From Deltaproteobacteria bacterium (GTDB lineage Bacteria > Desulfobacterota > Dissulfuribacteria > Dissulfuribacterales > UBA5754), in NCBI GenBank assembly GCA_036574075.1, contig JAINCN010000021.1:64652-128651 (forward strand): 64,000 nt of DNA, written 5' to 3'. Under the pieces are notes generated by a model. It was not told where the DNA came from. It searched no databases and saw nothing but the letters and a program-made list of their open reading frames with translations. Below, piece by piece: positions 1 through 26,523 of the stretch. How positions within the stretch are numbered: the stretch's first letter is position 1; every line of letters begins with the position of its first letter. Made by a program: the position numbers and the translations under genes.

Positions 1-120
1 CATATCCGCAAGGGTCACTCCCTCGACCTCGCCGCAGAAACCCCTCGGGTTTCCCTTAGGAAACGGGAAATCCCCGCATCCCTTTGGAATATCCAGAGTC
101 ACCCTCGAGGCAGCGTTCAT
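1..120 (-). CDS. hypothetical protein, 5' end only (continues off the left edge)
   Basis: The ATG at 120-118 overlaps the TGA stop of the upstream CheB-like gene (ATGA at 117-120). The frame MNAASRVTLDIPKGCGDFPFPKGNPRGFCGEVEGVTLADM stays open to position 1. No motif recognised. Confidence 0.3.
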   Translation of the reverse strand, partial: MNAASRVTLDIPKGCGDFPFPKGNPRGFCGEVEGVTLADM

Positions 121-1244
121 GGCCTGCTCCACTCCTGGATGACCGCTACGAGTTCGGGCAGGAGCCCAGAGCGGGCCTCCACGGCATCCATGACGCTGCG
201 GACGAGGAAAGGAGAAAGGCAGGTATCGGGCCGCTGGACCCAGATCCTCCCCCCTATACGCTCGACTTCCCGGGCCCCGGAGACCCCCTCTTGCAAATCC
301 CCTGAAAGATAGATGGCCAACGTCCCTTCGCTGAAGTGTTCGCTTGCGGAAAAGAGAAGGAGATCCAGGGGGCCTTCGCGATCAGAGAGATTCGTGCGTC
401 TGGTCACCCGCAGGGTCAGTCTGTCCCCAATTTGCTCAAAGGAGGAAATTTCGTCAGCAGATACGAAATAGGCACATCCTCGCTGGATCACGTCCCGGTC
501 ACGGACTCTCCTGAGGGGAAAGGGGGTATATGTCTGGAGATATTCGATAAAAGAATCGAGATACTGGCTAGACATACCAGCTACGACGATGATTGGCTCG
601 CGGGGCGGTACGGTAAAGGCCGGGAAAAGGCCCAGAAGCGAGGCGTATCCGCCAGTGGATGTCCCAATGACGGACACCCCGGCGGGATATCCCGTTTTCC
701 CTGCTGCTTCGAAAGACGGCGACCTAACGGCCGACCTTCCGAGTCTAAGGTAACGTGCAGCCCCCATGCTCACACCTGCAGCCCTCTTCACCTTCATTCT
801 CAGGACAGTCTTCTGCGCTTCCAGGTCCTCGCCTGATTCCTGGGACGGCTTCTGGAAAAAATCAACCGCGCCATAACGCAGGGCGTCAAATGTGATCCGT
901 GCGCCTTCCGAGGTAAAGGCGCTCACCATGAGGGCAGGCAACGGAGAACGTATCATGATGTGCTTGAGGAGGGTGATGCCGCTCATGCCAGGCATATTTA
1001 CATCAAGCGTACACACATCGACGTCACACCGGGCAAGTCTATCCATGGCCGATTGGCCGCTCATGGCCGTTCCGACCACCTGGATCTCGTCGTCATCCGA
1101 AAAGATCCTCTCAAGTACCTTGCACATCAAGGGTGAGTCATCCACGATGAAGACCCGTGTCCTTTTCCCTTTCTCCGGCCGAACAGTCGCGTCTGCAGCG
1201 CACTCCATGCAAGTCCTCCTCATATGCCTTATGAGATATGGCAA
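117..1244 (-). CDS. CheB-like response regulator (REC plus methylesterase-like domain; triad His apparently absent)
   Basis: 375-aa ORF. N-terminal receiver: VFIVDDSPLMCKVLERIF...CTLDVNMPGMSG...KP. C-terminal domain has a GTSTGG nucleophile-type motif, as in CheB GASTGG. AGM occupies the position where CheB has QHM. Confidence 0.8.
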   Translation of the reverse strand: MPYLIRHMRRTCMECAADATVRPEKGKRTRVFIVDDSPLMCKVLERIFSDDDEIQVVGTAMSGQSAMDRLARCDVDVCTLDVNMPGMSGITLLKHIMIRSPLPALMVSAFTSEGARITFDALRYGAVDFFQKPSQESGEDLEAQKTVLRMKVKRAAGVSMGAARYLRLGRSAVRSPSFEAAGKTGYPAGVSVIGTSTGGYASLLGLFPAFTVPPREPIIVVAGMSSQYLDSFIEYLQTYTPFPLRRVRDRDVIQRGCAYFVSADEISSFEQIGDRLTLRVTRRTNLSDREGPLDLLLFSASEHFSEGTLAIYLSGDLQEGVSGAREVERIGGRIWVQRPDTCLSPFLVRSVMDAVEARSGLLPELVAVIQEWSRP

Positions 1245-2230
1245 GGTCCGTCAGACCCCAGGCCCGTCCTCCCACAGGCCGACAGATAAAGCCTGCGCCC
1301 AAAGGCGCCTATCCTTGCCGACACGTCCCTGTCCACGACAAAACGCCTTGCAAGGGGATCGAAGACGTTTCCATCCGCTCCCTCCACGCCGAGCCGGACG
1401 AACATAACGGGCGGATCCGGGCGACAGGAAAGATTCCGTGCGTACTCGATGAAATCAAAGAAGGTCTCTTTGAGACGGAAGCATCCCCCCCCATTCGCTT
1501 CTATTCCCCTAAAACGTGCCCATGGGGCGAGGTAGCAACCGGCCACGCAAATCTCGTCGATCTCTGTGCAACAATACACGGGCCATGCGAAAACATCCTT
1601 GAGTCCAGCCCCGTAGGACCTGACGAGTTCCGGCACCATGTCGAGATGGGCCAAAACCGCAAGGGGCAGGTTTACATCCAGCTGGGAAAGGATCCTCATG
1701 AACTCCGCAGCACCGCCCTTGCCAACCGCTATCACGACCACCCCTGCTGCATGGTGATCCCTCCATCCCCTATCGCCAGCATGGAGGTGCAATCGGGCGC
1801 GCCTGATCTGGGCCGGCTCCACACCGGCGGCGATTTTCACGATCCGGGCCAGGGACTCGGCCTGTTCGTGGATATCGAGGGAGATGGTCCCGGAGGGTTT
1901 TGGGAAAAAATCCACGGCCCCGAGCCTCAGGGCATCCAGGGTGATTGCGCTCCTGTGGGCAAGTCCGCTCACCATGACCACGGGTTTGGGATACCTCACC
2001 ATGATATGCTTCATGGCCGTGATCCCGTCCATGACGGGCATGTCCACGTCAAGGGTGATGACATCAGGGTCGAGAATGGCGACCGCCTCCAAGGCCTCGA
2101 GCCCGTGCCGTGCCACACCCGCAACCTCTATCTCATTATCTCTCGAAAGGATCTCCACGAGGGCGCGCCTCATGAAGGAGGTATCGTCCACAACAAGTAC
2201 ACGGATCTTGCGTGCTGGCGCCTCAGGCAT
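1229..2230 (-). CDS. CheB-like response regulator paralog with degenerate active site (nucleophile Ser replaced)
   Basis: 333-aa ORF. Receiver: RVLVVDDTSFMRRAL...ITLDVDMPVMDG...KP. The C-terminal domain aligns by eye to the CheB fold, but the nucleophile motif is IAVGKGG (no Ser). AHLD and GADG-like positions are retained. It overlaps the next gene by 16 nt. Confidence 0.75.
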   Translation of the reverse strand: MPEAPARKIRVLVVDDTSFMRRALVEILSRDNEIEVAGVARHGLEALEAVAILDPDVITLDVDMPVMDGITAMKHIMVRYPKPVVMVSGLAHRSAITLDALRLGAVDFFPKPSGTISLDIHEQAESLARIVKIAAGVEPAQIRRARLHLHAGDRGWRDHHAAGVVVIAVGKGGAAEFMRILSQLDVNLPLAVLAHLDMVPELVRSYGAGLKDVFAWPVYCCTEIDEICVAGCYLAPWARFRGIEANGGGCFRLKETFFDFIEYARNLSCRPDPPVMFVRLGVEGADGNVFDPLARRFVVDRDVSARIGAFGRRLYLSACGRTGLGSDGPCHIS

Positions 2231-3092
2231 TGAGCACCCCCGACCATTGCTCTATGAGAAGGTCCTTGTCCTGGCGGAGGCGAAGGGCGATCTTCTTTAC
2301 CGTCTCTGGAGCGAGCCCGAGGGATCTCGGAACGAGCACCTTGTCCACCTCGCCATTTATGGTCCAACCGATGCCGAGTTTCTGACACAGGACATCGGCG
2401 AGAAATACTACGCCTACGGCGACCTCGTGGCATCCTGCTCCCTGGGGTCTGTGGTGATAGCGAAGGACATTCGCGAAAAAATCGCTGAGCCCCCACGAGG
2501 CGGCGAGATAGGCCCCAAGCTCGCCGTGGGTGAGTCCGAAGCGTTCCTCGGCCTCGATGAGGGTGATGCCATCCCTCTCCCTGATAGCAAGGATTTCTCC
2601 CAGTTCGTCAGGGAAATACCGGCAGAGGAGAAATCTCCCCAGGTCGTGTATGAGCCCGGCGGTGAAGATTTCGTTAGCATCCACGCCGGGCATGTTTTCT
2701 GCGATCATCTTTGAGGCCTTCGCAACCCCGATGGAGTGGAGCCATAGATCCCGCACGGCGAATCCCTCCATGTCTGCATACCCGGAAAACGCGGATATCA
2801 AAGACAGTCCGATGACGAGGTTTCTGACCTCCTCGAGGCCAAGCACCACTACCGCACGGGCAACGCTGTTGATCCTGCCGGCACCACCGTAGTACGGGGA
2901 GTTCGCAAGGCGGAGGATCTTCATGGTAAGGACGGGATCCTGCGCGACGATCCGTTCAATGTCGAGGGCTGTAGTGCTCTCCATGTCGAGAACATCAAGG
3001 ACCTGGTGGAACGTATGGGGAATCGGAGGAAGATCTTCCCGCAGGTCGAGCCGCTCCGTGTAGGAAACCCCCATGGACATGGACGAGCCCAT
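2223..3092 (-). CDS. HDOD domain-containing signalling protein
   Basis: 289-aa ORF. Typical HDOD N-terminus LPPIPHTFHQVLDVLDMESTTALDIERIVAQDPVLTMKILRLANSPYYG...VARAVVVLGLEEVRNL and HD-like HDLG. Overlaps the downstream CheB-like gene by 8 nt. Confidence 0.8.
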   Translation of the reverse strand: MGSSMSMGVSYTERLDLREDLPPIPHTFHQVLDVLDMESTTALDIERIVAQDPVLTMKILRLANSPYYGGAGRINSVARAVVVLGLEEVRNLVIGLSLISAFSGYADMEGFAVRDLWLHSIGVAKASKMIAENMPGVDANEIFTAGLIHDLGRFLLCRYFPDELGEILAIRERDGITLIEAEERFGLTHGELGAYLAASWGLSDFFANVLRYHHRPQGAGCHEVAVGVVFLADVLCQKLGIGWTINGEVDKVLVPRSLGLAPETVKKIALRLRQDKDLLIEQWSGVLNA

Positions 3093-3492
3093 CCCTTCTC
3101 ATGGATTTACCACTATTATCGACAGGGACGCGCCAGGACTTGAGAAGGGAGCGGATCGTGGCGGCCCTGCGCAAAAACCTGGTCGTTTCGGCCCCAAAAA
3201 ACGGGCAGGACTGATCACACTGCAAAAACCTCGAAATCTGATCCCACTCAAAAAGCCCTAGATGCAAGGCGCGAAATTTTCCAGGAATGAGGAGGGCGAA
3301 TCACGATTCGCCCCTACAGCGTACGCCGCATGGGCTGGAAAATTGAAGCAACGCCGCGAGAATCGGGTTTTTGAGCGGGATCAGGACTTAATCTTCCCCG
3401 CTTGGCTGTTCGATAAGAAAAATAACCCGCACCAGGGACCGGCATCACACGGGCCAACTCCACTCGAGAGGATCCATCCAAGGCAGGAACAA

Positions 3493-3897
3493 ATGAGCGA
3501 TTTTGTCCTTACCATACCTGTTCTCGAAAAGACCCGACGCGAGATCGAGAGCCACCTCATCGACGCAGGGGCACACACGGTCCTCATCGTAGACCAGGCA
3601 GGCAATATCATCACAAGCTGCGGCAAGACCAACAACAGCATCCAGGACTTCACATCCCTTGCCGCACTCACAGCGGCAAACTTTGCCGCGACCTCCCAGA
3701 TCGCCAGGCTCATCGGGGAGGACGACTTTTCCCTCCTTTTTCACAAGGGGAAAAAGGACAGCATCCATTTCACCCGACTCGGAGACGACTTCATCCTCGT
3801 CACTATCTTCGGGGATGACGTCTCCCTCGGCATCATTCGGCTCAAGATCTCTGAACTCATACATAGACTGTCTTCCATCCTCGGGATCAGCGTCTGA
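3493..3897 (+). CDS. mglB: Roadblock/LC7 family protein, MglB-like (putative GAP of MglA)
   Basis: Internal ATG at 3493 of the 3262-3897 ORF. Sequence MSDFVLTIPVLEKTRREIESHLIDAGAHTVLIVDQAGNIITSCG...FTSLAALTAANFAATSQIARLIG is Roadblock/LC7-like. The stop is 2 nt before the mglA start, matching the mglB-mglA order in Myxococcus. Confidence 0.8.
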   Translation: MSDFVLTIPVLEKTRREIESHLIDAGAHTVLIVDQAGNIITSCGKTNNSIQDFTSLAALTAANFAATSQIARLIGEDDFSLLFHKGKKDSIHFTRLGDDFILVTIFGDDVSLGIIRLKISELIHRLSSILGISV

Positions 3898-3899: not shown

Positions 3900-4523
3900 A
3901 TGGCCCTTATCGATCTGAGCAAGAAGGAAGTCCACTGCAAGATCGTCTACTACGGCCCGGGACGATGCGGGAAGACGACCAACCTCATCTATATCTATAA
4001 CGCTATGAGCGAAAAGACCCGGGGAAAGATGCTCACTATCGAGACAAAGGGAGACCGGACCCTGTTTTTCGATCTCCTGCCCATCAAACTCGGAAAGGTG
4101 GCAGGCTTTGACATCCGCATACAGCTCTACACTGTCCCGGGCCAGAGCATCTACGAGGCAACGCGAAAACTCGTCCTAAAGGGTGTGGACGGGATAGTTT
4201 TCGTGGCCGATTCCCTCAAAATCAGACAGCGCAAAAACATCGACAGCCTCCTCGAACTCACTCAGAACCTGAAGGAACTAAACCGCACCCCCTCCGAGAT
4301 TCCCCTTGTGCTCCAATACAACAAACGTGATCTCGTCACCTCGCCCATACCGACCCTCAGCATCGAGGAACTCGAGCGTGACCTCAACAACGGGCGGCGC
4401 CTCCCCTTTTTTGAGGCGGCGGCGATCAAGGGTATAGGGGTCTTTGAGACACTAAAGGAAATCAGCAAACAGACGGTCAGGCACGTGGCGAACAAGCATC
4501 TCTTCACCAAACCGTCTGGATGA
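3900..4523 (+). CDS. mglA: Ras-like small GTPase MglA
   Basis: 207-aa ORF. P-loop KIVYYGPGRCGKTTNL, MglA-specific switch II LYTVPGQ (instead of DxxGQ), NKRD guanine-specificity motif, LKGVDGIVFVADS. Close by eye to M. xanthus MglA. Confidence 0.92.
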   Translation: MALIDLSKKEVHCKIVYYGPGRCGKTTNLIYIYNAMSEKTRGKMLTIETKGDRTLFFDLLPIKLGKVAGFDIRIQLYTVPGQSIYEATRKLVLKGVDGIVFVADSLKIRQRKNIDSLLELTQNLKELNRTPSEIPLVLQYNKRDLVTSPIPTLSIEELERDLNNGRRLPFFEAAAIKGIGVFETLKEISKQTVRHVANKHLFTKPSG

Positions 4524-4565
4524 CTAATGCCACGCCAAAGGGGATTACGCCCTGAAGGAGTTTCC

Positions 4566-6236
4566 ATGAACGATAACACACCCATCCGTGACCAGGACGA
4601 TTTTCTAAATGAAATCGATGGATCGATCGACGCCCTTTTCGTTCCGACTCGACATATCGAGATCGATGCCCTGACAAACGAGATAAGAGAAAAGACGCCA
4701 CCGAACGATCCCTCCTCCGATGCATCCCCATCCCATCTGGAGGCCCATTCACCTGAAAACAGGGCTTCAGATACCCCCCTGACCCTCGAGCTGGAACCGG
4801 AGCCGGCATCCACGCCTGAGCAAGGCCCAAAGGAAGTCCCTTACGGAGACAACGGCCCAGCCCAAGAGGTGACTTCTTCGCTCAGCTCCCTTGACAGGCT
4901 CCGCCAAGGCATCCTTTCCATCGATTGGGAGATCTCGGACACCACTCTCAAGGAGGTGGAGCAATCCCTCGAGGCGATCGGCTCCAACGGGGCCTTTGCC
5001 GATTCAGCTGGGGCCCTTGGCATCATCGCCCTTCTCAAGGGTATATCCATGCAGCTCCGGAAGGATGTGTCCTCCCCCTCGACCCATATCGTTCGCGCCC
5101 TTCAGAAAGGGCTTACCGGGCTCGTCTCCATTGCAGAAGGACCGCCTGAAGACAGGGAAAAACGGATAGCCGCTCTCAGGGAAGAGCTCGAAAAGGTCAT
5201 GTTTCCCGCATCCGGCTTGGATATCGCCGAATCCGGCAGTACCCCCCAGGCCCCAGAACTGCAAAAAACCACTCCGCCACAGGGCGTTGACGCCATCTCG
5301 CTTGACATCGAACTGGAAGACGCCATCGATAAGGCCATACAGCCAAAAGCCGACACAAAGCCGATTATCGAGGCCCCTTTGCACCCCGTATCATCTGGCC
5401 CGCTGACTCAGGGTCTCTCCGCCTGCGTCCCCCCCCCACTCCTTACGCCGACCGAAACCATAGCCCATCCAGAGGGTGTCCTCGAGGCGGCCATCCTGGA
5501 ACACATCTCCCGCCTTAATAGGTGGATCGAGGGCATCCAGCCTATAGAAAGGCTTTTCTCCTCGACACGGGGCATGGAAAAGCTCAGCGCCTTCCATGCT
5601 AGGCTCATAGGAGACATGAGGCGCGAACGGGATCGCCTCGCTGGCATACTCGAAGGGAAAACTTATCAGGCGCCTGAACCCTCCTCCGCAGCACCTTCGC
5701 ATCCATCCGCCCCTGCAGCTCCTGTCAAATCGACGCAACCTGCCTCCCCATCCCCCTTGCCATGGAAAAATCTATGCGTCGTTTCCGGAAAAGAGGGCCT
5801 TATCGCACTGGTCCCTGAGGAAATCGCCTTTTCCGGCCCAAGCCCGTGGTGGGTCAGGCGCAAGGCATTTAAAGCCCGGAGCTTCCCCCTGAGGATGCTC
5901 AAACCCTGGCCATGGTCCCGCCTGAACACGCTTTTTACCGGAGAACTCGGAGAACTCGACGCCTCCGCCCTCTCATCAGCCGAGTTTCCCGTCCATCCGC
6001 TCACGCTCTCAGGAGAAAATGGCCCTGCGATTCCTCGGCGGCCCCACATCCTTGTCCTTTACGCACAAGGACGCGGATTGATCCTCTTTCTTGCAGTAGG
6101 CCCGAGGCCTTTTGCCCTCACGTCCGAATGGAGCTGGAATCCAGGCGATTCGTCCGAATCCGGCCCCATTGCCGGAGAACTCAGGCGCGGGGGGGAAGCC
6201 ATTCCTGTTCTGTCCGTCCGGAAAATCCTTACATAG
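4566..6236 (+). CDS. hypothetical Pro/Ser/Glu-rich protein with possible C-terminal CheW-like domain
   Basis: Strong SD GAAGGAG (4554-4560) lies 5 nt before the ATG at 4566; the ORF track starts at 4527. The long acidic/proline-rich linkers have no recognisable family. The last ~150 aa (LCVVSGKEGLIALVPEEIAF...PHILVLYAQGRGLILFLAVGP...IAGELRRGGEAIPVLSVRKIL) resemble the CheW beta-barrel pattern. Confidence 0.6.
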   Translation: MNDNTPIRDQDDFLNEIDGSIDALFVPTRHIEIDALTNEIREKTPPNDPSSDASPSHLEAHSPENRASDTPLTLELEPEPASTPEQGPKEVPYGDNGPAQEVTSSLSSLDRLRQGILSIDWEISDTTLKEVEQSLEAIGSNGAFADSAGALGIIALLKGISMQLRKDVSSPSTHIVRALQKGLTGLVSIAEGPPEDREKRIAALREELEKVMFPASGLDIAESGSTPQAPELQKTTPPQGVDAISLDIELEDAIDKAIQPKADTKPIIEAPLHPVSSGPLTQGLSACVPPPLLTPTETIAHPEGVLEAAILEHISRLNRWIEGIQPIERLFSSTRGMEKLSAFHARLIGDMRRERDRLAGILEGKTYQAPEPSSAAPSHPSAPAAPVKSTQPASPSPLPWKNLCVVSGKEGLIALVPEEIAFSGPSPWWVRRKAFKARSFPLRMLKPWPWSRLNTLFTGELGELDASALSSAEFPVHPLTLSGENGPAIPRRPHILVLYAQGRGLILFLAVGPRPFALTSEWSWNPGDSSESGPIAGELRRGGEAIPVLSVRKILT

Positions 6237-6254: not shown

Positions 6255-8570
6255 ATGAATCCTGAATCCATTAAAGCCCTTTTGTACGAGGCGGATCTTT
6301 ACGCCAGCCAAGGCCTCATCTCCGAGGCCCGTCAACTCTATGAAGAACTCCTCGCAAAGGCCGTAAACTATCCACCTCCCCTTGCCACGACCATCAAACA
6401 GAGGCTGGAGGCCCTCACAGGCACACGGACGCAGGCCGTTTCTGCCAACGGCCGCAATCGTCCCGCCCACGATGAAACGGATCGCCATCTCCAGAATGCC
6501 ATCGGCCTCATGGAAGCCGGCTTCCACCGAGAGGCCGTGAGCGAACTCAAGCTCATCCTCGACAAGGGTTATCCCAATGGGGAAATCCATCTCATGATCG
6601 CCGAGGCATATCTCGCCTCCAATCTTCCTTTCGATGCGGTGGATCACTTAGGAGAGGCACTGAAGGACACAAAACTCTCCCCAGAAAAACGCATGGAATG
6701 CCTCTACCGTGCCGCCATCATCCATGAGCAGCTCGGTATGATACCCCAGGCCATAGAAAAATTGAGGCAGATCGTGAGGATCGACCCCGGCTACAGAAAT
6801 TGCCGGGAGCGGCTGGACGGACTGACGCAAAGCGCCCAGAAATTCGGCCAGTACTATCCCCTGATCGCCAAAAATCTCCTGCAGGAAAGCCAGCTCGAGG
6901 AGGCGCGAAGCGCCGCTCGGGCAGGGGGAAAAACCATCGAATCCATCCTTATGACGAGATTTTCTATCGAAAAGGAGGAAATCGGCCGGGCGCTCAGCGA
7001 ATATTACCGCGTACCTTTTATCGAGTTTAACGAGCTCGAGGTGGGAACGGCGCCCGCCTGCATCAAGGGGGTCAAGGAACACTTCTTCCGGGCCAACACC
7101 TGTGTCCCTATCAAGGAAGAACGGGATGTCCTGCTCGTGGCACTCGACAACCCGAACGACCTCGTCAAGATCGACAACATAAAGCGCGTCCTCAAGGCCT
7201 CCCAGTTCGAATTCGCTGTGGCCCTAAAGGAAGACATCGACAAGTTCATCGACTTTTATTTCGGAAAGCTCAGCCTGGGTGGGAAGCAAGGAAACGTCTT
7301 CGATCAGCTGGAGATTTCCGAAGGGGAGGAGGTGGAGACGGATGATGAGGCATCCGACGCATCTGAAGCCGACAGCGTGGTTGTCCAGATGGCGAACACT
7401 ATCATCGAGGACGCCTTTGCAAAAAACGCCTCAGATATCCACATCGAGTCCCTAACCGGGAGGCGGGGGGCTGGAATCCGTCTGAGGATAGACGGCGACT
7501 GCATCCATTACCAGAACGTCCCCTATGAATACAAGCATGCCCTCATCTCCCGCATCAAGATCATGTCATCCCTTGACATCGCGGAAAAGAGGCTCCCTCA
7601 GGACGGAAAGATCAAATTCAAGACGCGACAGGGAAAGACCATCGAACTCCGGGTGGCGACCCTTCCCACCATAGAAGGCAACGAGGACGTGGTCCTTCGT
7701 ATCCTATCGGCATCTGAGGCTATGCCCCTCGACAAGATCGGCCTCATGCCGGATAACCTGGCGGCACTAAAGGATATCCTTGCCATGCCGTACGGCCTCA
7801 TCCTCGTAGTCGGCCCCACGGGTTCTGGAAAGACCACCACACTTCATGCCGCCCTCGGCCACATCAACCGCCCTGAAAAGAAGATCTGGACCGCAGAGGA
7901 TCCCGTGGAAATCGTCCAGGAAGGGCTCCGCCAGGTCCAGGTGAAGCCGGCTATAGGGCTAACATTCGCCCGGGTCCTTAGGGCATTTCTCAGGGCCGAC
8001 CCCGACGTCATCATGGTGGGTGAGACCCGGGATGAAGAAACGGCTACTACCGTTATCGAGGCCTCTCTCACCGGACACCTGGTCTTTTCCACACTCCACA
8101 CGAACTCAGCACCCGAGACGGTCACCCGGCTCCTCGGGATGGGCATGGACCCCTTCAACTTCTCGGACGCACTCCTCGGGATCCTTGCCCAGCGACTTGT
8201 AAAACGCCTCTGCACCAAGTGCAAGGAACCCTACACACCGGACAAGGACGAGATCCAACGACTCATAACGGAATACGGCTCGCACCCATCGAGGCCCCTC
8301 GATCCATCCCGATTCGCATCGGCGACTCTCTACCGGGCGAAGGGCTGCCCATTCTGTAACAACACAGGCTACAAGGGGCGCCTTGCCATCCACGAACTCC
8401 TCATTTCGAACGACGAGTTGAAGAGGCTCATTCAGGAAAAGAGACCGGTCTACGAGATCGCGGATGCCGCCCTGAGGGCGGGCATGCTCACCTTGAAGCA
8501 GGACGGCATCCTGAAGATCCTTTCCGGCGACACCGATATCAAACAGGTCCGCTCGGCATGCATCAAGTAG
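6255..8570 (+). CDS. GspE/PilB-family type IV pilus / T2SS assembly ATPase with N-terminal TPR extension
   Basis: 771-aa ORF. About 200 aa of N-terminal TPR-like repeats (LYASQGLISEARQLYEELL, MEAGFHREAVSELKLIL, GMIPQAIEKLRQIVRIDP). Then a GspE_N-like region, Walker A GPTGSGKTTTL, Asp/His boxes, and a tetracysteine motif CTKCKEPY...CPFCNNTGYKGR. Confidence 0.9.
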   Translation: MNPESIKALLYEADLYASQGLISEARQLYEELLAKAVNYPPPLATTIKQRLEALTGTRTQAVSANGRNRPAHDETDRHLQNAIGLMEAGFHREAVSELKLILDKGYPNGEIHLMIAEAYLASNLPFDAVDHLGEALKDTKLSPEKRMECLYRAAIIHEQLGMIPQAIEKLRQIVRIDPGYRNCRERLDGLTQSAQKFGQYYPLIAKNLLQESQLEEARSAARAGGKTIESILMTRFSIEKEEIGRALSEYYRVPFIEFNELEVGTAPACIKGVKEHFFRANTCVPIKEERDVLLVALDNPNDLVKIDNIKRVLKASQFEFAVALKEDIDKFIDFYFGKLSLGGKQGNVFDQLEISEGEEVETDDEASDASEADSVVVQMANTIIEDAFAKNASDIHIESLTGRRGAGIRLRIDGDCIHYQNVPYEYKHALISRIKIMSSLDIAEKRLPQDGKIKFKTRQGKTIELRVATLPTIEGNEDVVLRILSASEAMPLDKIGLMPDNLAALKDILAMPYGLILVVGPTGSGKTTTLHAALGHINRPEKKIWTAEDPVEIVQEGLRQVQVKPAIGLTFARVLRAFLRADPDVIMVGETRDEETATTVIEASLTGHLVFSTLHTNSAPETVTRLLGMGMDPFNFSDALLGILAQRLVKRLCTKCKEPYTPDKDEIQRLITEYGSHPSRPLDPSRFASATLYRAKGCPFCNNTGYKGRLAIHELLISNDELKRLIQEKRPVYEIADAALRAGMLTLKQDGILKILSGDTDIKQVRSACIK

Positions 8571-8698: not shown

Positions 8699-9289
8699 TC
8701 AGAATCGTATGTATAAGCTAGCGATGTTTCCGGAAGCCGGTGCGTAGGCAGCAGTTGCCACCACGGAACCCGTGTCATAGACGGCGTCATCGAGCTTGGT
8801 GTCTATCTCGAGGGCTACATCCCAAGGCAGGTTATCCAGTCTGAACCAGTGGTTCGGGGTGGCTGCAGCCGGTGGGGGATCCGTCCAGTAAAGAACGATG
8901 ATGTCACCGAATGGGTGCCTGGGCAGGGTGTTTGGCGTTCTGTCGTAATTTCCGGAGATGATCTCGGCGAGCTGGAGGTCCCGGAAGAGCCACAGGTATT
9001 CGTTTCCGTTGATCTGACCGTCTCCGTTTCCGGCGTTGTCATCATTGGCCGGGATCGTGTTACCGGCCCCTCCCAGGGCCTCGTCTCCTGGGTATTGGCC
9101 GTACCTGTCATAAAAGGTGAGGACCGCTGCCCTTATGCCGTCCACCTGTGCAATGGTCTTTTTGACCTTGGCCTGCTGGATGAGGGCCTGCCCCTTCATG
9201 ACCGCCCCGAGTATGAGCCCGATAATCACAAGTACCATGGCCAACTCTACCAGCGTGAATCCCCTCTGCCCTTTCATGATGCGTTCCAT
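8699..9289 (-). CDS. prepilin-type N-terminal cleavage/methylation domain protein (candidate major pilin/pseudopilin)
   Basis: 196-aa ORF. Leader MERIMKGQRG followed by FTLVELAMVLVIIGLILGA (G-1/F+1/E+5 class III signal). SD AAGGAGG lies upstream. Confidence 0.85.
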   Translation of the reverse strand: MERIMKGQRGFTLVELAMVLVIIGLILGAVMKGQALIQQAKVKKTIAQVDGIRAAVLTFYDRYGQYPGDEALGGAGNTIPANDDNAGNGDGQINGNEYLWLFRDLQLAEIISGNYDRTPNTLPRHPFGDIIVLYWTDPPPAAATPNHWFRLDNLPWDVALEIDTKLDDAVYDTGSVVATAAYAPASGNIASLYIRF

Positions 9290-9354
9290 TTCCTTCGTAC
9301 CTCCTTTTTTTGATATTTGGATGGTTCGGATGCCATCCTGATATTCTTAGATAC

Positions 9355-10647
9355 TTATCGGTCTCGGACCCCTGTTGCTGTAAAACTCACTTGGCAGTCA
9401 CCATCTGCATCGGCCGATGCAGCCTGGCTGTAGGTTATTGTTGTCCGGGGTTGGAAGTTACAGGTTCCTAGTCTCGAGAATTGCTGGATGCTTCCCCCGC
9501 TGTTGAGACGCATCGAGTCGGTCGTGATCTCGCGGTTGTGACCGATATCATCCCTGCAGTGCCCATTATTGAACAGGAAGTCTGCCGTGAATCTCGTGAA
9601 GTTCCAGACCCTGATGCCCTGCGGGCACATCTGTGGCTGGCATGAGCCTGGATTTGAGCCTGCTGGATTGATGGTAATGACGAAATTCTTCGAGGCAATG
9701 TTGTCGTTTTCCCCGGATGGGTCGTTGTTGTCCCGGACGAAGATCCTCACAGGATATGTGCTCGATGTCCCCGCGGCAGGTGTGCCTTGGATGACGAGGC
9801 TTTTCGCCTGTCCCCAGGCGGCAGTGCCCTCGTCGGCGTGTGCGCAGTCCGAGCTCGTGGCGTTCGGGGTCAGGGAAAGTCCGTCGGGAACATCGCCCTG
9901 CACACTCCACTGCACACACCACTTGTACTCATTGCCGTCGGTGGTCTCGAACGGAACCCCTCCGTCGGCGATTACCTCTGCCATGTAGCTGTTTCCCTCG
10001 GAGCCGAACGGAAGTTCGTTGTTTACGATCCTAAGGGCCGGACCCACGCATCCCGCCTTGATCCTGAGTTCGTCGAGGGTGATCCAGGTAACGAGATCGT
10101 CGAAGGATTCGTTTCTTGACATATCGGCGGAATAGCCGTCAAGGTCAGGCGTCCCTGTGTCCCAGACCCTGATGCAGGTCTTTCCGGCGGGGCACCCCGC
10201 GAAGGCCCCTGTTCCCAACTGGATGTTCATGTTCTCGCCGCCGCTTGCAAGCACGAAGGCGGCGTTCTGGACGATGCGCGGGGTCGTGCATGCGGGGTCG
10301 GCCCCGCACTGGATGACCGACAACCCCGTGCTACTCCTCCCGCAGATATCAGGGGTGGTAAGGAGGCCGTCCGGGACGTAGAGAAGGTCCTTTTTCCATG
10401 AATCGCCCATGGTGCGGGCCACTGACGGGATCTCGGCCAAGGTGGGGATCTCCTTGTGTAGGGCGGCGTAGCTTACCACCCCTTCGGCAGCAGCGGCAAG
10501 GGTGTCTTTGGTCTCGTTCGTCTTTATCCGCTTGATCATGGGGCTGATCATGCCGGCACCAAGACCTGTCAGGATCCCGATGACAACAAGGATGATCGCC
10601 ATCTCGATAAGGGTGAACCCAGCATTTCGGGTGCGGTATGTTGGCAT
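9355..10647 (-). CDS. large pilin-like protein: prepilin N-terminus fused to Cys-rich and Ig-like (He_PIG-type) domains
   Basis: 430-aa ORF. MPTYRTRNAG/FTLIEMAIILVVIGILTG prepilin signal. Internal segment LRIVNNELPFGSEGNSYMAEVIADGG...DGLSLTPN...LVIQGTPAAGTSSTYPVRIFVRDNND matches the putative-Ig-domain pattern. About 14 Cys residues. Confidence 0.8.
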   Translation of the reverse strand: MPTYRTRNAGFTLIEMAIILVVIGILTGLGAGMISPMIKRIKTNETKDTLAAAAEGVVSYAALHKEIPTLAEIPSVARTMGDSWKKDLLYVPDGLLTTPDICGRSSTGLSVIQCGADPACTTPRIVQNAAFVLASGGENMNIQLGTGAFAGCPAGKTCIRVWDTGTPDLDGYSADMSRNESFDDLVTWITLDELRIKAGCVGPALRIVNNELPFGSEGNSYMAEVIADGGVPFETTDGNEYKWCVQWSVQGDVPDGLSLTPNATSSDCAHADEGTAAWGQAKSLVIQGTPAAGTSSTYPVRIFVRDNNDPSGENDNIASKNFVITINPAGSNPGSCQPQMCPQGIRVWNFTRFTADFLFNNGHCRDDIGHNREITTDSMRLNSGGSIQQFSRLGTCNFQPRTTITYSQAASADADGDCQVSFTATGVRDR

Positions 10648-10648
10648 T

Positions 10649-11461
10649 TCAGTGGCCCTCCCTTGTCATTGTTTTGGCAAGTTCCAGGTTGTACCTGATG
10701 TCTTCGTCGTCAGGGGCAATACTTATGGCCTCCTCGAGGATCTTCCTCGCCTCGTCTGGTCTTTTCAGCATGATCAAGGTGGCTGCAAGGTTGTTACCGA
10801 TCACCGGGTCTTTTTCCCGGCGCCATGCGGCCTGGTAAATCCGGCAGGCCTCTTCGATCCTACCCTGGCTGATCATAGCCTGCGCCTCCATGACGTCTGG
10901 GATGGGAGTCTCCTCTGCCTCGCTCATTTGGGCCTTCTTTTGGCTGGCAGGCGCCTGAAGAGCGGTCAGCTTGTCGGGGATGCGGATCTCCGCATCGGGC
11001 AAAGGCGCCTTGGCCGGCGGTTCATCGACTGCAGGAAGCAGTTTTGTCTCTCTGGAGTCCCGGGTTCCGATCCCGGATCCGGATTCGGACGGTATCGAGG
11101 GTTTCGGATCGTTGGATGCCGGCATGGATGATGCTGGAGGAGCATCCGCCAGTTGCTGCTGAACAGGGGGTGATGACGAGGGAGGCGATCCGGCATCGTT
11201 TCGGATGGCCCTGTCTGACGTCTCTGTTGTCTGTAGAGGCCGGAGGGTCTCACTGTTCATGCGTAGTTTCGAGGTGTCGATCCCCGAGACCGCCACTATG
11301 GCCAGGATCCCTGCCCCTGCAATGACGCCTACTGCGATAGACGAAAGGATCCAGGGGCCCTTCCATCGCCTTTTGGTCCTTTCCCTGAGGGCGAAGGGGG
11401 GCGGGTCTGCGCCGTGTTTCCTGGCCTCTATCCGGGAGATGGCATCAAACAGCCTGCTCAT
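10649..11461 (-). CDS. membrane-anchored TPR protein (MshN-like pilus biogenesis component)
   Basis: 270-aa ORF. One TM segment (WILSSIAVGVIAGAGILAIVAV), a Pro/Ser-rich linker and C-terminal TPR repeats (GRIEEACRIYQAAW..., DEARKILEEAISIAPDD). Positioned between the secretin and the pilins. Confidence 0.65.
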   Translation of the reverse strand: MSRLFDAISRIEARKHGADPPPFALRERTKRRWKGPWILSSIAVGVIAGAGILAIVAVSGIDTSKLRMNSETLRPLQTTETSDRAIRNDAGSPPSSSPPVQQQLADAPPASSMPASNDPKPSIPSESGSGIGTRDSRETKLLPAVDEPPAKAPLPDAEIRIPDKLTALQAPASQKKAQMSEAEETPIPDVMEAQAMISQGRIEEACRIYQAAWRREKDPVIGNNLAATLIMLKRPDEARKILEEAISIAPDDEDIRYNLELAKTMTREGH

Positions 11462-13121
11462 GGCCCATGACCTGTATCTGGAAAATGATCACCAGCTCGA
11501 CACGCTGGGAAGATTCCACATTGTGCCTGAAAGCAGGACCGATCACGGGAAGGGAGCCCAGGACCGGCACACCTACCCTGTTTTCCTTCTTTTTGTCCTG
11601 GATGAGGCCTCCGAGCATGAGTATCTCACCCGGCCTGGCCCGTACTACTGTAGATGCCTCTCTCAGGTTGACCCGAGGGAAGGTATAGCGATTTCCTCCG
11701 GTGAATTCGCGCTCCTCGAGGGAGATGAGGTCGCTCTTTATGGGCACGATATGGAGGTTCACGGTCCCGTCTGCCTCTATGATGGGGGTGATCCCAAGGA
11801 GCACGCCATCGAAGATGGAGCTTATCTCCACGTTTGTATCGGTGGTGGTAAGGTTGTCCCCGGATGTGGTCTCCTGCTCAAGGCTCCTTAGATACGAGAC
11901 CGACTGGCCCACGCTTATGACTGCTGACTGACCGTTCATGGCCTTCAGCCTGGGGTTTGAGAGGGTCTTGAGTGTCCCGTATTCCTCAAGGGCCTTGAAC
12001 ATGAGGCCGACGTCATAATAGCGCTGGGAGAGGTTCAGGCCGTACAGGAAGCCCGACTCCGTGATGTTGCTCGTCATGGTGAAGAGGGCCCCGGTATCCT
12101 TGAGCGCGTCCTTGCTGATGGTGAGTTCAAGCCTCCTCCAGTCGATGCCAAGTTCGTGTCCCTTGGAGAGCTCCACCTCAATGATCTTGGCCTCGATGAG
12201 GACCTGCCTTCTGTATTTTTCCCTCAGCGCATCGAGGTATGTGGCGATCTCCTCAAGGATCCGCGGCCGGGCCCTCACGAGAAGGGTGCCGGTCTGGCGG
12301 TTCAGGAAAAAGGTCCCTTCCTCCCCAAGCCTGGCCTTCACGGCGTTTTCTATCCCTGTGTATATATCGGTGACCGCGTCGGTCGTCTGTCCGGAAAGCT
12401 CGAAGTCTCCAGTGAGCGGGGTGAGGACGTTTTCGCTCCCTTCGCCGCCGCCCCCTCCACCACCGCCGCTGCTCCTGCCACCGCCTCCCCCGAGGACATC
12501 ACCGCCCACGGTGAACCGTGACTGAGGGACCGTGCCCAGGAATTCCAGGTGAAAGAGCCTCTGCGAGGTCCCGTGTATGTAAATGGTGCCCTCAGAATAG
12601 CTCCAGGAGATGTCCATGGCCTTTGTGACAGAGTCCAGGACCTCGCGCACAGGCCGTTCCTGGTAAACGGCAGTGAGGGTAGTCTTGTCACCGAGCATCT
12701 CGTCCACCTCCGGCCCGATCATGAGGTTTGCGCCTGCAGCATGCGCAAGGGCGTGGAGGATGTTCTTGTAGTTTTCATCGACGAAGGTTATAGAGACGAA
12801 CTTCGCGTCGAGGGGGGTTATGGTCTTGAATCGCGGCTGAGCAGAAGAGAGGTTTTTCTTGTGTTCAGGCCTGGTATCGGCAGGGAAAGGGGCATTGAAC
12901 CCCGATTGCGCTCCCAGGTCTTCAGGCATGGGACGCTCGCCCGTGCCGCCCTGCTGCCTGGCGCTGTCAGGGTGAGGCCCCAACCCGGCATTCATAGGTG
13001 CGCAGGCAGAAAACAGTGCCACAGAAAGGGCAAGCGCAATAAAGGGCAGTCCGCTTGTAAAGGTCTTTAAGGCAGACAGTTGCCTGGGCCGTCCGACTAT
13101 GACGTTTCGATGATGTCTCAT
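11445..13121 (-). CDS. secretin (MshL/PilQ/GspD family outer-membrane channel)
   Basis: 558-aa ORF. Secretin core QVLIEAKIIEVELS...NPRLKAMNGQSAVISVGQ...GEILMLGGLIQDKKKENRVGVPVLGSLPVIGPAFR...ELVIIFQIQV. Contains a Gly-rich insert GGGGGRSSGGGGGGGGEGSE. Confidence 0.9.
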   Translation of the reverse strand: MRHHRNVIVGRPRQLSALKTFTSGLPFIALALSVALFSACAPMNAGLGPHPDSARQQGGTGERPMPEDLGAQSGFNAPFPADTRPEHKKNLSSAQPRFKTITPLDAKFVSITFVDENYKNILHALAHAAGANLMIGPEVDEMLGDKTTLTAVYQERPVREVLDSVTKAMDISWSYSEGTIYIHGTSQRLFHLEFLGTVPQSRFTVGGDVLGGGGGRSSGGGGGGGGEGSENVLTPLTGDFELSGQTTDAVTDIYTGIENAVKARLGEEGTFFLNRQTGTLLVRARPRILEEIATYLDALREKYRRQVLIEAKIIEVELSKGHELGIDWRRLELTISKDALKDTGALFTMTSNITESGFLYGLNLSQRYYDVGLMFKALEEYGTLKTLSNPRLKAMNGQSAVISVGQSVSYLRSLEQETTSGDNLTTTDTNVEISSIFDGVLLGITPIIEADGTVNLHIVPIKSDLISLEEREFTGGNRYTFPRVNLREASTVVRARPGEILMLGGLIQDKKKENRVGVPVLGSLPVIGPAFRHNVESSQRVELVIIFQIQVMGHEQAV

Positions 13122-13582
13122 GGGATCCTCTCTCCCGATCTTATGAAGATCGACTGTTCCCCAGTGTCCACGGTCACCCCGTTTCCAGTGATGGATTTTA
13201 TCCTTAGCCCGGCGATCTCCTGGCCCTCATGCAAGATGTTTCCCTCGATGATGCAGAAACGGTCCGATCCGGTCACGGCCACGAGGCCAAGACTCAGGTC
13301 ATGCGCGACCCCTTCAGGTTCGGGTGGGGCGACAGGGATCGGCCTTTGATCCAGAAAGCCGAAGGGGTCGAGGGCGCCGATCCCTTCGATCTCCGTCTTT
13401 TCGGGAGACGCGGGCGCAAGCGCGGCAGGAAGTTGGGGCATGGCCTGGAATCCACGCGGGTGAGAACGGTAGGCCTGGGCGTTGAAGAGCATGACGAGAA
13501 GCGCGGTTGCCGCAGCAATGAATCCCGCCATAGGCAGGCAGACCGCAATCCATCTGACCGCCGGGTTCATGGAGCGAGACAC
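13118..13582 (-). CDS. pilus assembly protein, PilP/MshK/GspC-like (weak)
   Basis: 154-aa ORF with an N-terminal TM segment (WIAVCLPMAGFIAAATALLVMLF) and a C-terminal beta-rich segment RFCIIEGNILHEGQEIAGLRIKSITGNGVTVD. Call rests on position upstream of the secretin. 4-nt overlaps on both sides. Confidence 0.45.
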   Translation of the reverse strand: MSRSMNPAVRWIAVCLPMAGFIAAATALLVMLFNAQAYRSHPRGFQAMPQLPAALAPASPEKTEIEGIGALDPFGFLDQRPIPVAPPEPEGVAHDLSLGLVAVTGSDRFCIIEGNILHEGQEIAGLRIKSITGNGVTVDTGEQSIFIRSGERIP

Positions 13583-14037
13583 AGGAGATACCCCCGTATG
13601 CGGTATTCGAGGTGTCTGTCATCGTTCGTTTCGCCGGCCATGGCAGTTTTGATCCCGGCCTTTGCAGGTTCTTTTCTCGATGCGGAGAAGGAGACGGGGA
13701 CGAATACGCGGTCAGGGGCGCGCAAGGCGGAAAGACGGAGGACAAGCTCTGTAAAGGGCACATCCTGAAGGGTCATCTCCGTCTCCTGCCAAACTATAGC
13801 CGGGTTAGAGGTGAGATCCGGAAACGCGCCGCTGGTCCGTTCATCTCTGTTGGCCACATGGCGTTCGATTTCAGAGATGAGCTGTTCCTCCTTCAGGACG
13901 GCATCGAGGCCTGAGGCGAGTTCCTGTCTTTCCTTCCATGCAGCGACAAAAAACCAGATGGCGACGCAAAGGATCGACACCATTGCGGTCTGAAAAACAA
14001 TGGTTCTTGTCGGAGGGATGGGAGGGCCGTGGTTCAC
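13567..14037 (-). CDS. pilus assembly protein, PilO/MshJ-like (weak)
   Basis: 156-aa ORF with one TM segment (IVFQTAMVSILCVAIWFFVAAW) followed by a coiled-coil-like region. Operon position only. Confidence 0.45.
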   Translation of the reverse strand: MNHGPPIPPTRTIVFQTAMVSILCVAIWFFVAAWKERQELASGLDAVLKEEQLISEIERHVANRDERTSGAFPDLTSNPAIVWQETEMTLQDVPFTELVLRLSALRAPDRVFVPVSFSASRKEPAKAGIKTAMAGETNDDRHLEYRIRGYLLCLAP

Positions 14038-15503
14038 TGGTTCATCCTCATAGCGCCATTGCCGCGCGGAGAAATCGTGCAGGAGAGCACGCCCTCGGAC
14101 GTCTCTTCGGTGTAGCGTCTTTGGACGCGTTCGATGTCAAAGGCTGTCTGGAGGTTATGGATCGCGGCGTCCATCCGCTCGTTCGCCTCGCTAAAGGACG
14201 CAGAGGTGACGAGTTCGATTGCGATTTCCACGGGTTGGGCCAAGAGGGTGGCCGGGTCGCTGGAAACGAGATCCTGACCGGCGCTGTTCGCCATCCTAAG
14301 AGCCGGGGACGCGGCGGCCTTTGTCTCCCCGGATCCCTGGAGACCTTGGACAGCCCGGTTCAGGTCCATTTTTTTGATCTTCACCCCGTCAGGGAGCCTG
14401 TTTGCGAGGGTGACAAGGATCTCGTCCAGCCCGTGCTCGGCCCTGGCCCTGTTCCAGATGGCTGCAAGACGTTCGCGGGCCTCCCGTTCCGGTTGCGGCG
14501 GGAGTGTCTCCTCGATGAGCCGTCTTTTTGCCTCAACTTCCCGGGTACGATTGGCCAGATCGGCCTCAAGGGAAGAGTTCGTCCGCGCAAGGACAAGGGT
14601 GCCCGCAAGCAAAAGGGCGATTGCAGGAAGCGCGGCAAGGCTCGCCCATTTTGATACCTTCCCGATCGCGTAGGCCATCTTCCAGTCTTTAGGCACGAGA
14701 TCGTAGGCCGGGTCGGCGAACGCCACACCAAAGAGGTCAGGATGATCGTCCACCAGAGAAGGGTCCTGGACGTCCAGGATGGAATCCCACGCCGGTTGCA
14801 GGATATTCCGGCCGCCGAGCATGGCTGGGCACGAGCGCCGTTGCGGGCCGGTGGCGATGAAATGGCTGATATCGAGATCGTACTGCCTACGGGCCGTCTG
14901 GCTGACCATGTCGAAGGTCTGGGCCAGCATCGACTCCCGGAGGGATCCGTCCGTGTCAAGGGGGACAATCTGGGCGTGGAGAAGGACCGCGCCTGAAACA
15001 ACCATGATTTCAAGGAGTTCTTTATGGAAGATGGCAACGAGGACAGGTTCCTGGGTGAGGCGTCCCACGAGCCCGGCGATCGAGGCATGGCTGGGGATAA
15101 GGCCCGTGAGCCTCCATTCGCGCGCGCCGTGGCCGAGTTCCAAAATGGGTGCTACATCGCTTTCAGGCAGGGTGAGGACGGAGAGAATCTGATTTCCTGA
15201 GGCAGTGGTGCCGAGGGCCTTTATGCGATGGGCCACAGCCTGGCCTTCCGGCCACAGACCGCTCTGGCGGATCCGCTCAAGGACGCGGAGATTGAGGATT
15301 TCTTGTTTCGTTTTCGGGAACACTTCCCTGAAGATATGGATCTTCCTTGACGGGATGGTAACGGTCACTTCACCTGCGTTTACAGGCGCAGGGCCATGGA
15401 TCTCCTCGATCTGTCCGAAAGACGGCCTGTTAGGCGGTCCAGTGACGCGGACCCTGAGCCACGTCCCTCTTTCCTTTCCGGGTTTTGCGTAAAAACGGCC
15501 CAT
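14034..15503 (-). CDS. fused PilM-like / PilN-like pilus assembly protein (MshI-like)
   Basis: Start moved to the ATG at 15503 (MGRFYAKPGKE...) because the upstream part of the 15641 ORF lies inside the repeat element. About 330 aa cytoplasmic domain, a TM segment (WASLAALPAIALLLAGTLVLA), then coiled-coil and periplasmic domains. Confidence 0.55.
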   Translation of the reverse strand: MGRFYAKPGKERGTWLRVRVTGPPNRPSFGQIEEIHGPAPVNAGEVTVTIPSRKIHIFREVFPKTKQEILNLRVLERIRQSGLWPEGQAVAHRIKALGTTASGNQILSVLTLPESDVAPILELGHGAREWRLTGLIPSHASIAGLVGRLTQEPVLVAIFHKELLEIMVVSGAVLLHAQIVPLDTDGSLRESMLAQTFDMVSQTARRQYDLDISHFIATGPQRRSCPAMLGGRNILQPAWDSILDVQDPSLVDDHPDLFGVAFADPAYDLVPKDWKMAYAIGKVSKWASLAALPAIALLLAGTLVLARTNSSLEADLANRTREVEAKRRLIEETLPPQPEREARERLAAIWNRARAEHGLDEILVTLANRLPDGVKIKKMDLNRAVQGLQGSGETKAAASPALRMANSAGQDLVSSDPATLLAQPVEIAIELVTSASFSEANERMDAAIHNLQTAFDIERVQRRYTEETSEGVLSCTISPRGNGAMRMNQ

Positions 15504-15538
15504 TCTGGTTCTTTCGGCCTCAAGGCGTTTGCAAGAAG

Positions 15539-15712
15539 CCTGAATCCGTGATCCTACGCCCGGGATATTTGTTTCGTGCGGCAAATAGCCCCCGTCCATT
15601 GGGGCAGATTTGCCGACAGCGCCCATCCATGGGCGCTTCACTCCACAAATACCCCGGCCGTAGGCTTATGGTGTGAAATCGAAAGGGTGAGTGCATATCT
15701 CACGGATTCAGG
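15539..15712 (+). mobile_element. MITE-like structured repeat, full copy 1 (174 bp)
   Basis: 13-bp terminal inverted repeats CCTGAATCCGTGA (15539-15551) and TCACGGATTCAGG (15700-15712). Flanked by the direct repeat AAGAAG (15533-15538 and 15713-15718). The interior has nested hairpins and is near-identical to the reverse complement of 47303-47477. Confidence 0.75.
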
Positions 15713-16602: not shown

Positions 16603-16616
16603 GGCCCCCTTATCCC

Positions 16617-21934: not shown

Positions 21935-21946
21935 GGTTTTGCCTCG

Positions 21947-24626: not shown

Positions 24627-24682
24627 CCTGCGCCCTTCTTCATGGATTGGGCATGCGGGAACGTTTAACTTTGTGAAAAAAA

Positions 24683-26512: not shown

Positions 26513-26523
26513 AATGATCGCAA

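Follow-up and report, generated by a model that had tools for sequence, protein, structure and literature searches.

Degenerate CheB-like response regulators encoded next to CheA, MglA/MglB and pilus genes in a Deltaproteobacteria bacterium

CheB is the textbook response regulator with an enzymatic output. The subject of this study is a pair of genes for CheB-like response regulators, which is located at the left end of a 64,000-nt stretch of DNA from a Deltaproteobacteria bacterium (contig JAINCN010000021.1; the whole stretch is called the window, and all coordinates are in window numbering). The two proteins, W1 and W2, represent two families, BL1 and BL2, and a third family, BL3, is encoded directly after W2. 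All three proteins combine a receiver (REC) domain that is intact with a CheB-fold domain in which the catalytic triad of the esterase is broken. On balance, the BL proteins are most likely pseudo-esterase response regulators that would act as phospho-switched binders in a methylation-free pathway steering pilus polarity.

The closest described protein is CheB itself (1A2O of Salmonella and 6YMZ of P. atrosepticum). It shares with W1 and W2 the order of REC, linker and CheB_methylest fold, the intact phospho-acceptor site, a predicted identical packing of the two domains, and the encoding together with CheA and CheY. CheB opens its two domains upon phosphorylation (PMC8609364). In contrast to CheB, His190 is absent in BL1, BL2 and BL3, W1 and BL3 also lack Ser164, Asp286 is lost together with its loop in W1 and exchanged for Glu in W2, the scores are under the curated cut-offs, no CheR or MCP (methyl-accepting chemotaxis protein) partner is encoded nearby, and the ex-catalytic domain evolves faster than the receiver. 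W1 and W2 are CheB homologues by fold and architecture, but they are not CheB by the defining features of the enzyme.

Three described systems come close to the locus as a whole. The Frz system of Myxococcus xanthus has the receptor FrzCD, the active CheR FrzF and the CheB FrzG, and its outputs are CheY-type receivers (FrzZ, FrzX, RomR), not CheB-fold proteins. Its Che-type kinase is genetically tied to the GTPase MglA, its Roadblock GTPase-activating protein MglB and the positioning of the type IV pilus ATPase (PMC3441718, PMC7668184). The locus in the window resembles Frz in that a Che-type kinase and several response regulators are gene-linked to MglA and MglB, but its outputs have the CheB fold, and no receptor or CheR is present at this locus. 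The second system is Pil-Chp of Pseudomonas aeruginosa, which is similar in that a type IV pilus is controlled via antagonistic response regulators and a CheB homologue, ChpB. ChpB demethylates and PilK methylates the receptor PilJ (PMC12129077), and this methylation chemistry is absent from the system in the window. The third is the cyanobacterial Tax/Pix group with its PatA-type regulators. In Synechocystis, the targets of the PATAN-REC regulators PixE and PixG are the PilB1 N-terminal domain and PilC, and mglA/mglB are often neighbours of PATAN genes (bioRxiv 10.1101/2021.06.11.447907). Shared features are PATAN plus REC in BL3, a Che-like operon free of CheR and CheB, a second CheY-type regulator, and a PilB-type ATPase alongside. 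In contrast to Tax/Pix, W1 and W2 have no PATAN domain, BL3 carries an additional CheB-fold domain, two more CheB-like regulators accompany it, the cluster is devoid of MCP and CheW, and the hosts are sulfur-cycling Thermodesulfobacteriota. By analogy, the system would work most like two described pathways, the CheR/CheB-free cyanobacterial Tax systems and the Frz-MglAB circuit, and it differs from both by its CheB-fold regulators.

The left end of the window is a minus-strand operon. The genes of the three CheB-like proteins are located as follows:

1..120, minus strand: first 40 codons of the BL3 gene; its ATG (120..118) overlaps the W2 stop codon (ATGA), and the remainder lies left of the window
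117..1208, minus strand: W2 (BL2), REC plus CheB-fold domain, 363 aa; MEF3168305.1, annotated as 'chemotaxis protein CheB'
1229..2230, minus strand: W1 (BL1), REC plus strongly diverged CheB-fold domain, 333 aa; MEF3168306.1, annotated as 'response regulator'

An initial annotation of the stretch had described W1 and W2 as adjacent genes for proteins with REC and CheB-like domains. Both were recovered as minus-strand open reading frames (ORFs) with these Pfam domains, CheB_methylest of W1 being sub-threshold. The proposed overlap of the two genes did not stand. The mechanical W2 ORF reaches a TTG at 1244 and yields 375 aa, and an overlap needs this TTG start. It is ruled against by AGGAGG 6 nt upstream of the ATG at 1208 and by the NCBI record of the exact protein, which also has 363 aa. 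As judged from these start signals, W2 is encoded by 117..1208 and does not overlap W1, from which it is separated by 20 nt. The stop codon of the gene preceding W1, which encodes an HDOD-domain protein, overlaps the W1 start by 8 nt, and the start/stop overlaps in the operon suggest coupled translation.

For the analysis of the triad, alignments of 83 and 84 homologues were compared with 48 bona fide CheBs from fetched genome loci plus 1A2O using hhalign. As a control, the extraction pipeline returned STGG/QHMP/MGxDG for all of the about 55 true CheBs, which stem from Enterobacter, Myxococcus, Gallionellaceae, Acidobacteriota, an archaeon and others. Homologue searches with E<=1e-5 retrieved 885 clusters for W2, 1960 for W1 and 256 for BL3, and the family counts refer to the best 120 of each. 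The acceptor Asp (the Asp56 position) was invariant across the best 120 homologues of all three proteins, and the other residues of the receiver site (acidic pair, Ser and Lys) were invariant or nearly so in the 83- and 84-sequence alignments. Both receivers in the window are intact. W2 has Asp23, Asp24, the acceptor Asp69 (codon 1004..1002), Ser96 and Lys120 (all W2 residue numbers are in the 363-aa numbering), and W1 has Asp15, Asp16, the acceptor Asp61 (codon 2050..2048), Ser88 and Lys111. The phospho-acceptor contexts LDVNMPGMSG and LDVDMPVMDG, which had been noticed at the outset, are present in the W1/W2 pair.

W2 is the more CheB-like of the two proteins. It matches Pfam Response_reg and, with 84 bits, CheB_methylest, and it reaches 207 bits with the NCBIfam CheB model NF001965, which is under the cut-off of 293. 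A phmmer comparison with Salmonella CheB 1A2O aligned it end to end, and the profile-profile comparison of its family with the bona fide CheBs (hhalign) gave a probability of 100% and an E value of 3e-77. The AlphaFold2 (AF2) model of W2 has a pLDDT of 91.2 and a pTM of 0.90. Its best matches in the PDB are CheB 1A2O and 6YMZ, with template modelling (TM) scores of 0.78-0.87 over about 350 columns; the superposition on the closed-state 1A2O gave 0.82/0.85, and the target-normalised TM scores with isolated catalytic domains were 0.89 (3SFT) and 0.81 (1CHD). In the triad, the nucleophile is kept as Ser184 (equivalent to Ser164; nt 659..657) in GTSTGG, Gly211 replaces His190 (nt 578..576), and Glu307 replaces Asp286 (nt 290..288). 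The first reading of W2, with the Ser kept, the His lost and Glu at the Asp position, was therefore borne out by phmmer against 1A2O and by the profile-profile alignment alike.

These features of W2 raise the possibility that BL2 has residual or altered catalysis, i.e., that W2 hydrolyses some substrate independently of a His, with BL1 and BL3 being regulatory. The GxSTGG nucleophile elbow and an acidic residue are kept, the W2 model superposes closely on CheB, Ser164 is present in 60 of the 74 W2 orthologues, and Gly166 and Gly287 are invariant among them. In addition, some BL2 proteins from a second type of gene cluster (type A, see below) retain His190, and one has the whole triad. However, a general base is missing: none of the 74 orthologues has His190, the position being occupied by Gly (57), Ala (7) or Arg (6). 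Furthermore, position 286 varies widely, as Gln, Glu, Asp, His and Lys all occur, 14/74 have Thr, Gly or Ala instead of the Ser, and there is no nearby CheR or MCP to supply a substrate. Residual catalysis is thus regarded as improbable.

W1 has diverged much further. Its Pfam matches are Response_reg and CheB_methylest, the latter with only 21.3 bits, under the 24-bit cut-off, and it scores 171 bits with NF001965, again under the cut-off. With phmmer, it could be aligned to 1A2O only to about residue 249. The family as a whole is related to CheB (hhalign against bona fide CheBs, probability 100%, E value 1e-73), and the AF2 model of W1 (pLDDT 87.4, pTM 0.86) has CheB 6YMZ and 1A2O as its best matches in the PDB, with E values of about 1e-19 to 1e-20. 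As had been proposed, Ser164 is lost; phmmer and hhalign both place Gly170 (VGKGG; nt 1723..1721) at this position. The other two residues had been misassigned. The His in 'AHLD', His195, had been taken as catalytic, but it matches Thr188, and Asp197 holds the His190 position (nt 1642..1640). The 'GADG' Asp had been taken as the equivalent of Asp286, but 'GADG' is aligned to 'QAGAWT' of CheB, and a deletion of 14 residues takes out the Asp286 loop, as found with hhalign and, independently, with a MAFFT alignment of W1 and its closest relatives. All three catalytic residues are thus missing from W1 when it is aligned to CheB. The absence of esterase chemistry in W1 and W2 is predicted from these alignments.

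The reassignment of the W1 residues bears on the idea that the two proteins have complementary triads and form a composite site, in which a heterodimer would pool the Ser of W2 with a His and an Asp of W1. In both cluster types, almost all complete loci contain BL1 together with BL2, which would fit a joint function. However, W1 has Asp at the His190 position and no Asp286 loop, there is no conserved His in the CheB-like domain of BL1, in which only Gly172, Arg179 and Cys232 are nearly invariant, and in CheB a single domain provides the catalytic cleft (1A2O). The third paralogue does not offer a His either: the equivalent of His190 is present in none of BL1, BL2 and BL3, so that a Ser-His-Asp site cannot be restored by combining them. 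A composite site is thus highly improbable.

The third paralogue and the kinase were found left of the window. A Logan contig, L001, is identical to the window sequence, holds the exact W1 sequence and extends to the left. Directly after W2 it encodes (L001:3170-7719) BL3 (477 aa), a CheY (123 aa) and a CheA-CheW protein (913 aa), followed by unrelated convergent genes. BL3 is MEF3168304.1, and its precomputed Pfam domains are PatA_N (PF14332, PATAN/DUF4388), Response_reg (PF00072) and CheB_methylest. PF14332 was present on all 120 listed BL3 homologues. The CheB-like domain of BL3 is degenerate too, with GGAGG for GASTGG, QDV for QHM and Glu at position 286, and it reaches 117 bits with NF001965, again below the cut-off. 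The CheA comprises Hpt, dimerisation, HATPase and CheW domains. About 470 residues precede its dimerisation domain (L001:4978-7719), and by eye this N-terminal region contains further Hpt-like segments; in Dissulfurirhabdus thermomarina, the CheA gene follows one for a distinct 201-aa protein, which gives a faint Hpt match (L087:12995-13600).

The statement that CheA, CheR and MCP are missing was correct for the window, but CheY and CheA-CheW are located just 1.5 to 4.6 kb past its left edge. HMMs (hidden Markov models) for MCP, CheR and CheW, built from 52, 49 and 44 sequences, respectively, detected nothing in window ORFs of at least 70 aa, and no MCP or separate CheW was found within the 64-kb window or 12 kb left of it. 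CheR was found neither in the window nor on L001, although a partner may be encoded elsewhere in the genome. The initial annotation had named a canonical che operon upstream as the alternative that would make the two proteins ordinary CheB paralogues. CheY and CheA-CheW do adjoin directly downstream of the CheB-like genes, and W2 is annotated as 'chemotaxis protein CheB', but no CheR, MCP or intact CheB is present there. In addition, the triad is broken in all three proteins, all of them are far under the NCBIfam CheB cut-off, and the true CheBs in the same pipeline all have Ser/His/Asp and mostly (47/54) have CheR nearby. Ordinary CheB paralogues of a chemotaxis operon just outside the window are refuted by these results and are the least probable of all explanations.

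Next, the conservation of the triad across the three families was considered. His190 was found in one of 121 closest relatives of W2, one of 120 of W1 and none of 121 of BL3. The W1 relatives have Ser164 in 3/120 and Asp or Glu at position 190 in 97/120, within the motif Q[DE][IM]; in the BL3 relatives, position 164 is Gly in 121/121. As judged from these alignments, the loss of the triad is a family trait, not a local accident. In a neighbour-joining tree, BL2, BL3 and CheB formed pure clades, and BL1 was not one clade; the method is crude, and a single origin is not claimed. There is no curated NCBIfam model for any of the three families, and no description of His-less CheB-like regulators was found in full-text literature searches, with an earlier mention in the classification of Wuichet and Zhulin being possible. 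BL1, BL2 and BL3 are thus apparently undescribed conserved families.

The main rival of the proposed phospho-switched binding is that the proteins are phosphate sinks with a vestigial tail. The receivers would drain or buffer phosphoryl groups of CheA and compete with CheY, and the CheB-like domains would be decaying remnants. Four receivers for one kinase would fit this, and conservation is far stronger in the receivers than in the C-terminal domains: the mean pairwise identities of REC and CheB-like domain are 0.65/0.27 for BL1, 0.63/0.45 for BL2 and 0.61/0.42 for BL3, in comparison to 0.46/0.44 for true CheB. The difference is most pronounced for BL1. The CheB-like domain of W1 has diverged far more than its receiver, and the 14-residue deletion is present in comparison with CheB as well as with the closest homologues. 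When this domain was searched alone (184 aa, 1232..1783, minus strand), only two matches were obtained among 1.84 billion representatives, W1 itself and P0136 (E value 8e-4), a result that shows the divergence and is useless as a census of the family. On the other hand, full-length CheB-like domains have been kept in three families across Thermodesulfobacteriota and Gammaproteobacteria, AF2 folds them confidently, and each family has its own conserved motif at the old active site, namely STGGY, an invariant Gly in GGxGG, and Q[DE][IM]. A protein that serves purely as a sink should have lost this domain, as is the case for single-domain CheY sinks. By these alignments, the constraint on the former catalytic domain is relaxed, not lost, and the phosphate sink is considered unlikely, albeit less so than the other alternatives.

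The neighbourhood of the CheB-like genes is given by the further features of the window:

2223..3092, minus strand: HDOD-domain protein, 289 aa, first gene of the operon (Pfam HDOD 190 bits)
3093..3492, no strand: intergenic region from which the HDOD operon and mglB diverge; the mechanical ORF starting at 3262 is probably too long for mglB
3493..3897, plus strand: MglB-like Roadblock/LC7 protein, about 134 aa (Pfam Robl_LC7)
3900..4523, plus strand: MglA-like small Ras-family GTPase, 207 aa (Pfam Ras/Arf); P-loop GPGRCGKT, TVPGQ replaces DxxGQ
4527..6236, plus strand: conserved 569-aa protein with no family match, between mglA and the pilB-like gene
6255..8570, plus strand: TPR - MshEN - T2SSE (PilB/GspE-type) ATPase, 771 aa (Pfam T2SSE 396 bits, MshEN, TPR)
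8699..19465, minus strand: Msh/T2SS-like pilus cluster (Pfam)
19540..63354: housekeeping genes (Pfam scans of large ORFs)

The operon, in the order HDOD, BL1, BL2, PATAN-BL3, CheY, CheA-CheW, is divergent from mglB, mglA, the gene of the 569-aa protein and that of the TPR-PilB-like ATPase. A TxxGQ switch motif marks MglA-type GTPases; it is present as TVPGQ, and the Roadblock/LC7 gene adjoins. The MglB-like protein scores 56 bits with the NCBIfam MglB model, under its cut-off of 200 bits. Its mechanical ORF (3262..3897, 211 aa) extends about 77 codons beyond the homologues (130-136 aa), and the Roadblock domain comprises residues 102-183 of the 211-aa ORF. Translation of mglB probably begins at the ATG at 3493, so that 400 bp remain between the divergent genes; a promoter scan of this region revealed no sigma-70-like site.

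The 569-aa protein had no Pfam or NCBIfam match. Orthologues of 514-577 aa are encoded at L003, L009, L085, L086 and L087, always in the same slot, and conservation is seen in an N-terminal 'IDxLFxPxxxIEID' stretch and across the C-terminal third. By eye, its C-terminus was a candidate for a CheW-like domain, but the 44-sequence CheW HMM detected nothing at E<=1 and hhalign gave a probability of 0.24%, so that the candidate was rejected. The TPR-PilB-like ATPase reaches 509 bits with the NCBIfam PilB model, under the cut-off of 676 bits. The pilus cluster encodes two N-methyl prepilins, a TPR protein, a secretin, a T2SSB-like protein, an AAA_22 ATPase, a T2SSF platform protein and an MshEN-T2SSE ATPase, and the locus thus holds two ATPases of the PilB/MshE type. 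Judging by its adjacency, this cluster is likely the machine under control. In the other genomes, the region past the pilB-like gene differs, and the module is not located beside such a pilus cluster. The rest of the window encodes RsmB, a formyltransferase, an oligopeptide ABC transporter, a PAS histidine kinase, menaquinone (futalosine-type) genes, a Tol-Pal cluster, isocitrate/isopropylmalate dehydrogenase, ribosomal protein S1, QueC, RelA/SpoT, ProRS, GcpE and glycosyltransferases; Pfam analysis of 46 large ORFs detected no che genes in it.

The ten-gene module is present in at least five other genomes (L003, L009, L085, L086 and L087, besides L001). The hosts are Dissulfurimicrobium hydrothermale (complete genome), a Desulfobacterales metagenome-assembled genome, two further assemblies and Dissulfurirhabdus thermomarina. 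The shared order is PilB-like, 569-aa-type protein, MglA, MglB / HDOD, BL1, BL2, PATAN-BL3, (CheY), CheA-W, and the flanks vary. In D. thermomarina (L087), a CheW and a dCache MCP are encoded just past the pilB-like gene. In L086 and L087, genes of dissimilatory sulfite reductase (an NIR_SIR pair and DsrD) are found at 17.5-20.5 kb, a few kb from the module, which is consistent with a sulfur-cycling Thermodesulfobacteriota host.

A scan of one genome per species, annotated with purpose-built HMMs, revealed the second cluster type, type A. Its gene order is BL2, MCP, CheW, CheY, CheA, (PATAN-BL3), BL1, and a ParA/MinD-like ATPase with an N-terminal zinc ribbon. Type-A loci (L004, L008, L010-L022, L024, L028) occur in Gammaproteobacteria, Methylococcales, Desulfobacterales and cable bacteria (Ca. 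Electrothrix, Ca. Electronema). They share with the window's cluster the same three degenerate families, CheA-CheW, CheY and the absence of CheR. In contrast to it, they have their own MCP, CheW and ParA-like ATPase, usually lack HDOD, MglAB and PilB, and their BL2 proteins have Tyr (sometimes His) at position 190 and SEGG, not STGG. Type-A BL2 relatives with His190, some of them with Ala/His/Asp at the three positions, were observed at L012:540-1640, L004:2576-3643 and L013:1106-2161; the BL2 protein of L012 has Ser/His/Asp, yet with SEGG rather than STGG. Where a locus of either type was long enough for a judgement, BL1 and BL2 almost always occurred together. CheR was encoded within 10 kb in 1/27 degenerate loci versus 47/54 loci with true CheB, and in 0/18 versus 39/44 when only loci of at least 12 kb were counted. 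The window's own cluster encodes neither a methyltransferase nor a methyl-accepting receptor, so that a demethylase would have no substrate there.

For the preferred reading, the BL proteins as phospho-switched binders, the following sequence of events can be envisaged. CheA would phosphorylate the receivers of BL1, BL2 and BL3 as well as CheY. In the unphosphorylated proteins the receiver would pack on the ex-catalytic domain as in CheB, and phosphorylation would release it and expose the former cleft, which would bind a partner instead of hydrolysing a substrate. By analogy with PixE and PixG, the PATAN domain of BL3 may dock on the N-terminal part of the TPR-MshEN-PilB-like ATPase; at this locus, gene neighbourhood is the basis for this predicted contact. 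The BL proteins would bias the MglA/MglB switch or the pilus motor, and via MglA/MglB the kinase would set where or when (pole or timing) the neighbouring Msh-type pilus assembles. We infer the phosphotransfer from this CheA, the binding in place of catalysis and the identity of the targets. The suggestion made at the outset, that the proteins are pseudo-enzymes acting as phospho-dependent adaptors that feed into the HDOD, MglAB and pilus genes, fits the invariant receivers, the loss of His190 and the synteny of the module.

Several points weigh against this reading. A few type-A BL2 proteins retain His190 and one (L012) even the whole triad; these may be intermediates or still-active members, and by residue content the inactivation is complete in the lineage of the window, but not in every branch. 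The type-A clusters with BL1, BL2 and BL3 are usually devoid of MglAB or PilB, and the core role of the BL proteins may thus be in a kinase or receptor complex rather than with pili. In this genome, the CheB-like domain of W1 may be vestigial, given its strong divergence and its deletion with low pLDDT. The specific binding partners of the BL proteins are predicted from gene neighbourhood and analogy, and for the input of the kinase no MCP was found within the 64-kb window or 12 kb left of it.

A wider interpretation is more tentative, but it may be that a methylation-free chemosensory pathway has gone unrecognised, in which an ancient, conserved set of two to three CheB-derived regulators (BL1, BL2, PATAN-BL3) would act as phosphorylation-gated binders and replace CheR/CheB. 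It would exist in two wirings, one, in a single lineage, with MglAB and a dedicated TPR-PilB ATPase steering an Msh-type pilus, and one with a receptor and a ParA-like ATPase in cable bacteria, Methylococcales and other Gammaproteobacteria. If true, the CheB fold would have been turned into a non-catalytic signalling module, and there would be a route for chemosensory feedback or signalling without methylation. The annotation of such proteins as 'CheB' inflates the counts of methylation-competent pathways in genome surveys, including those of cable bacteria and sulfur-disproportionating bacteria, the motility control of which is poorly understood. Lastly, the linkage of MglA/MglB, PATAN and a PilB-type ATPase would offer a testable route from CheA to pilus polarity outside the myxobacteria.

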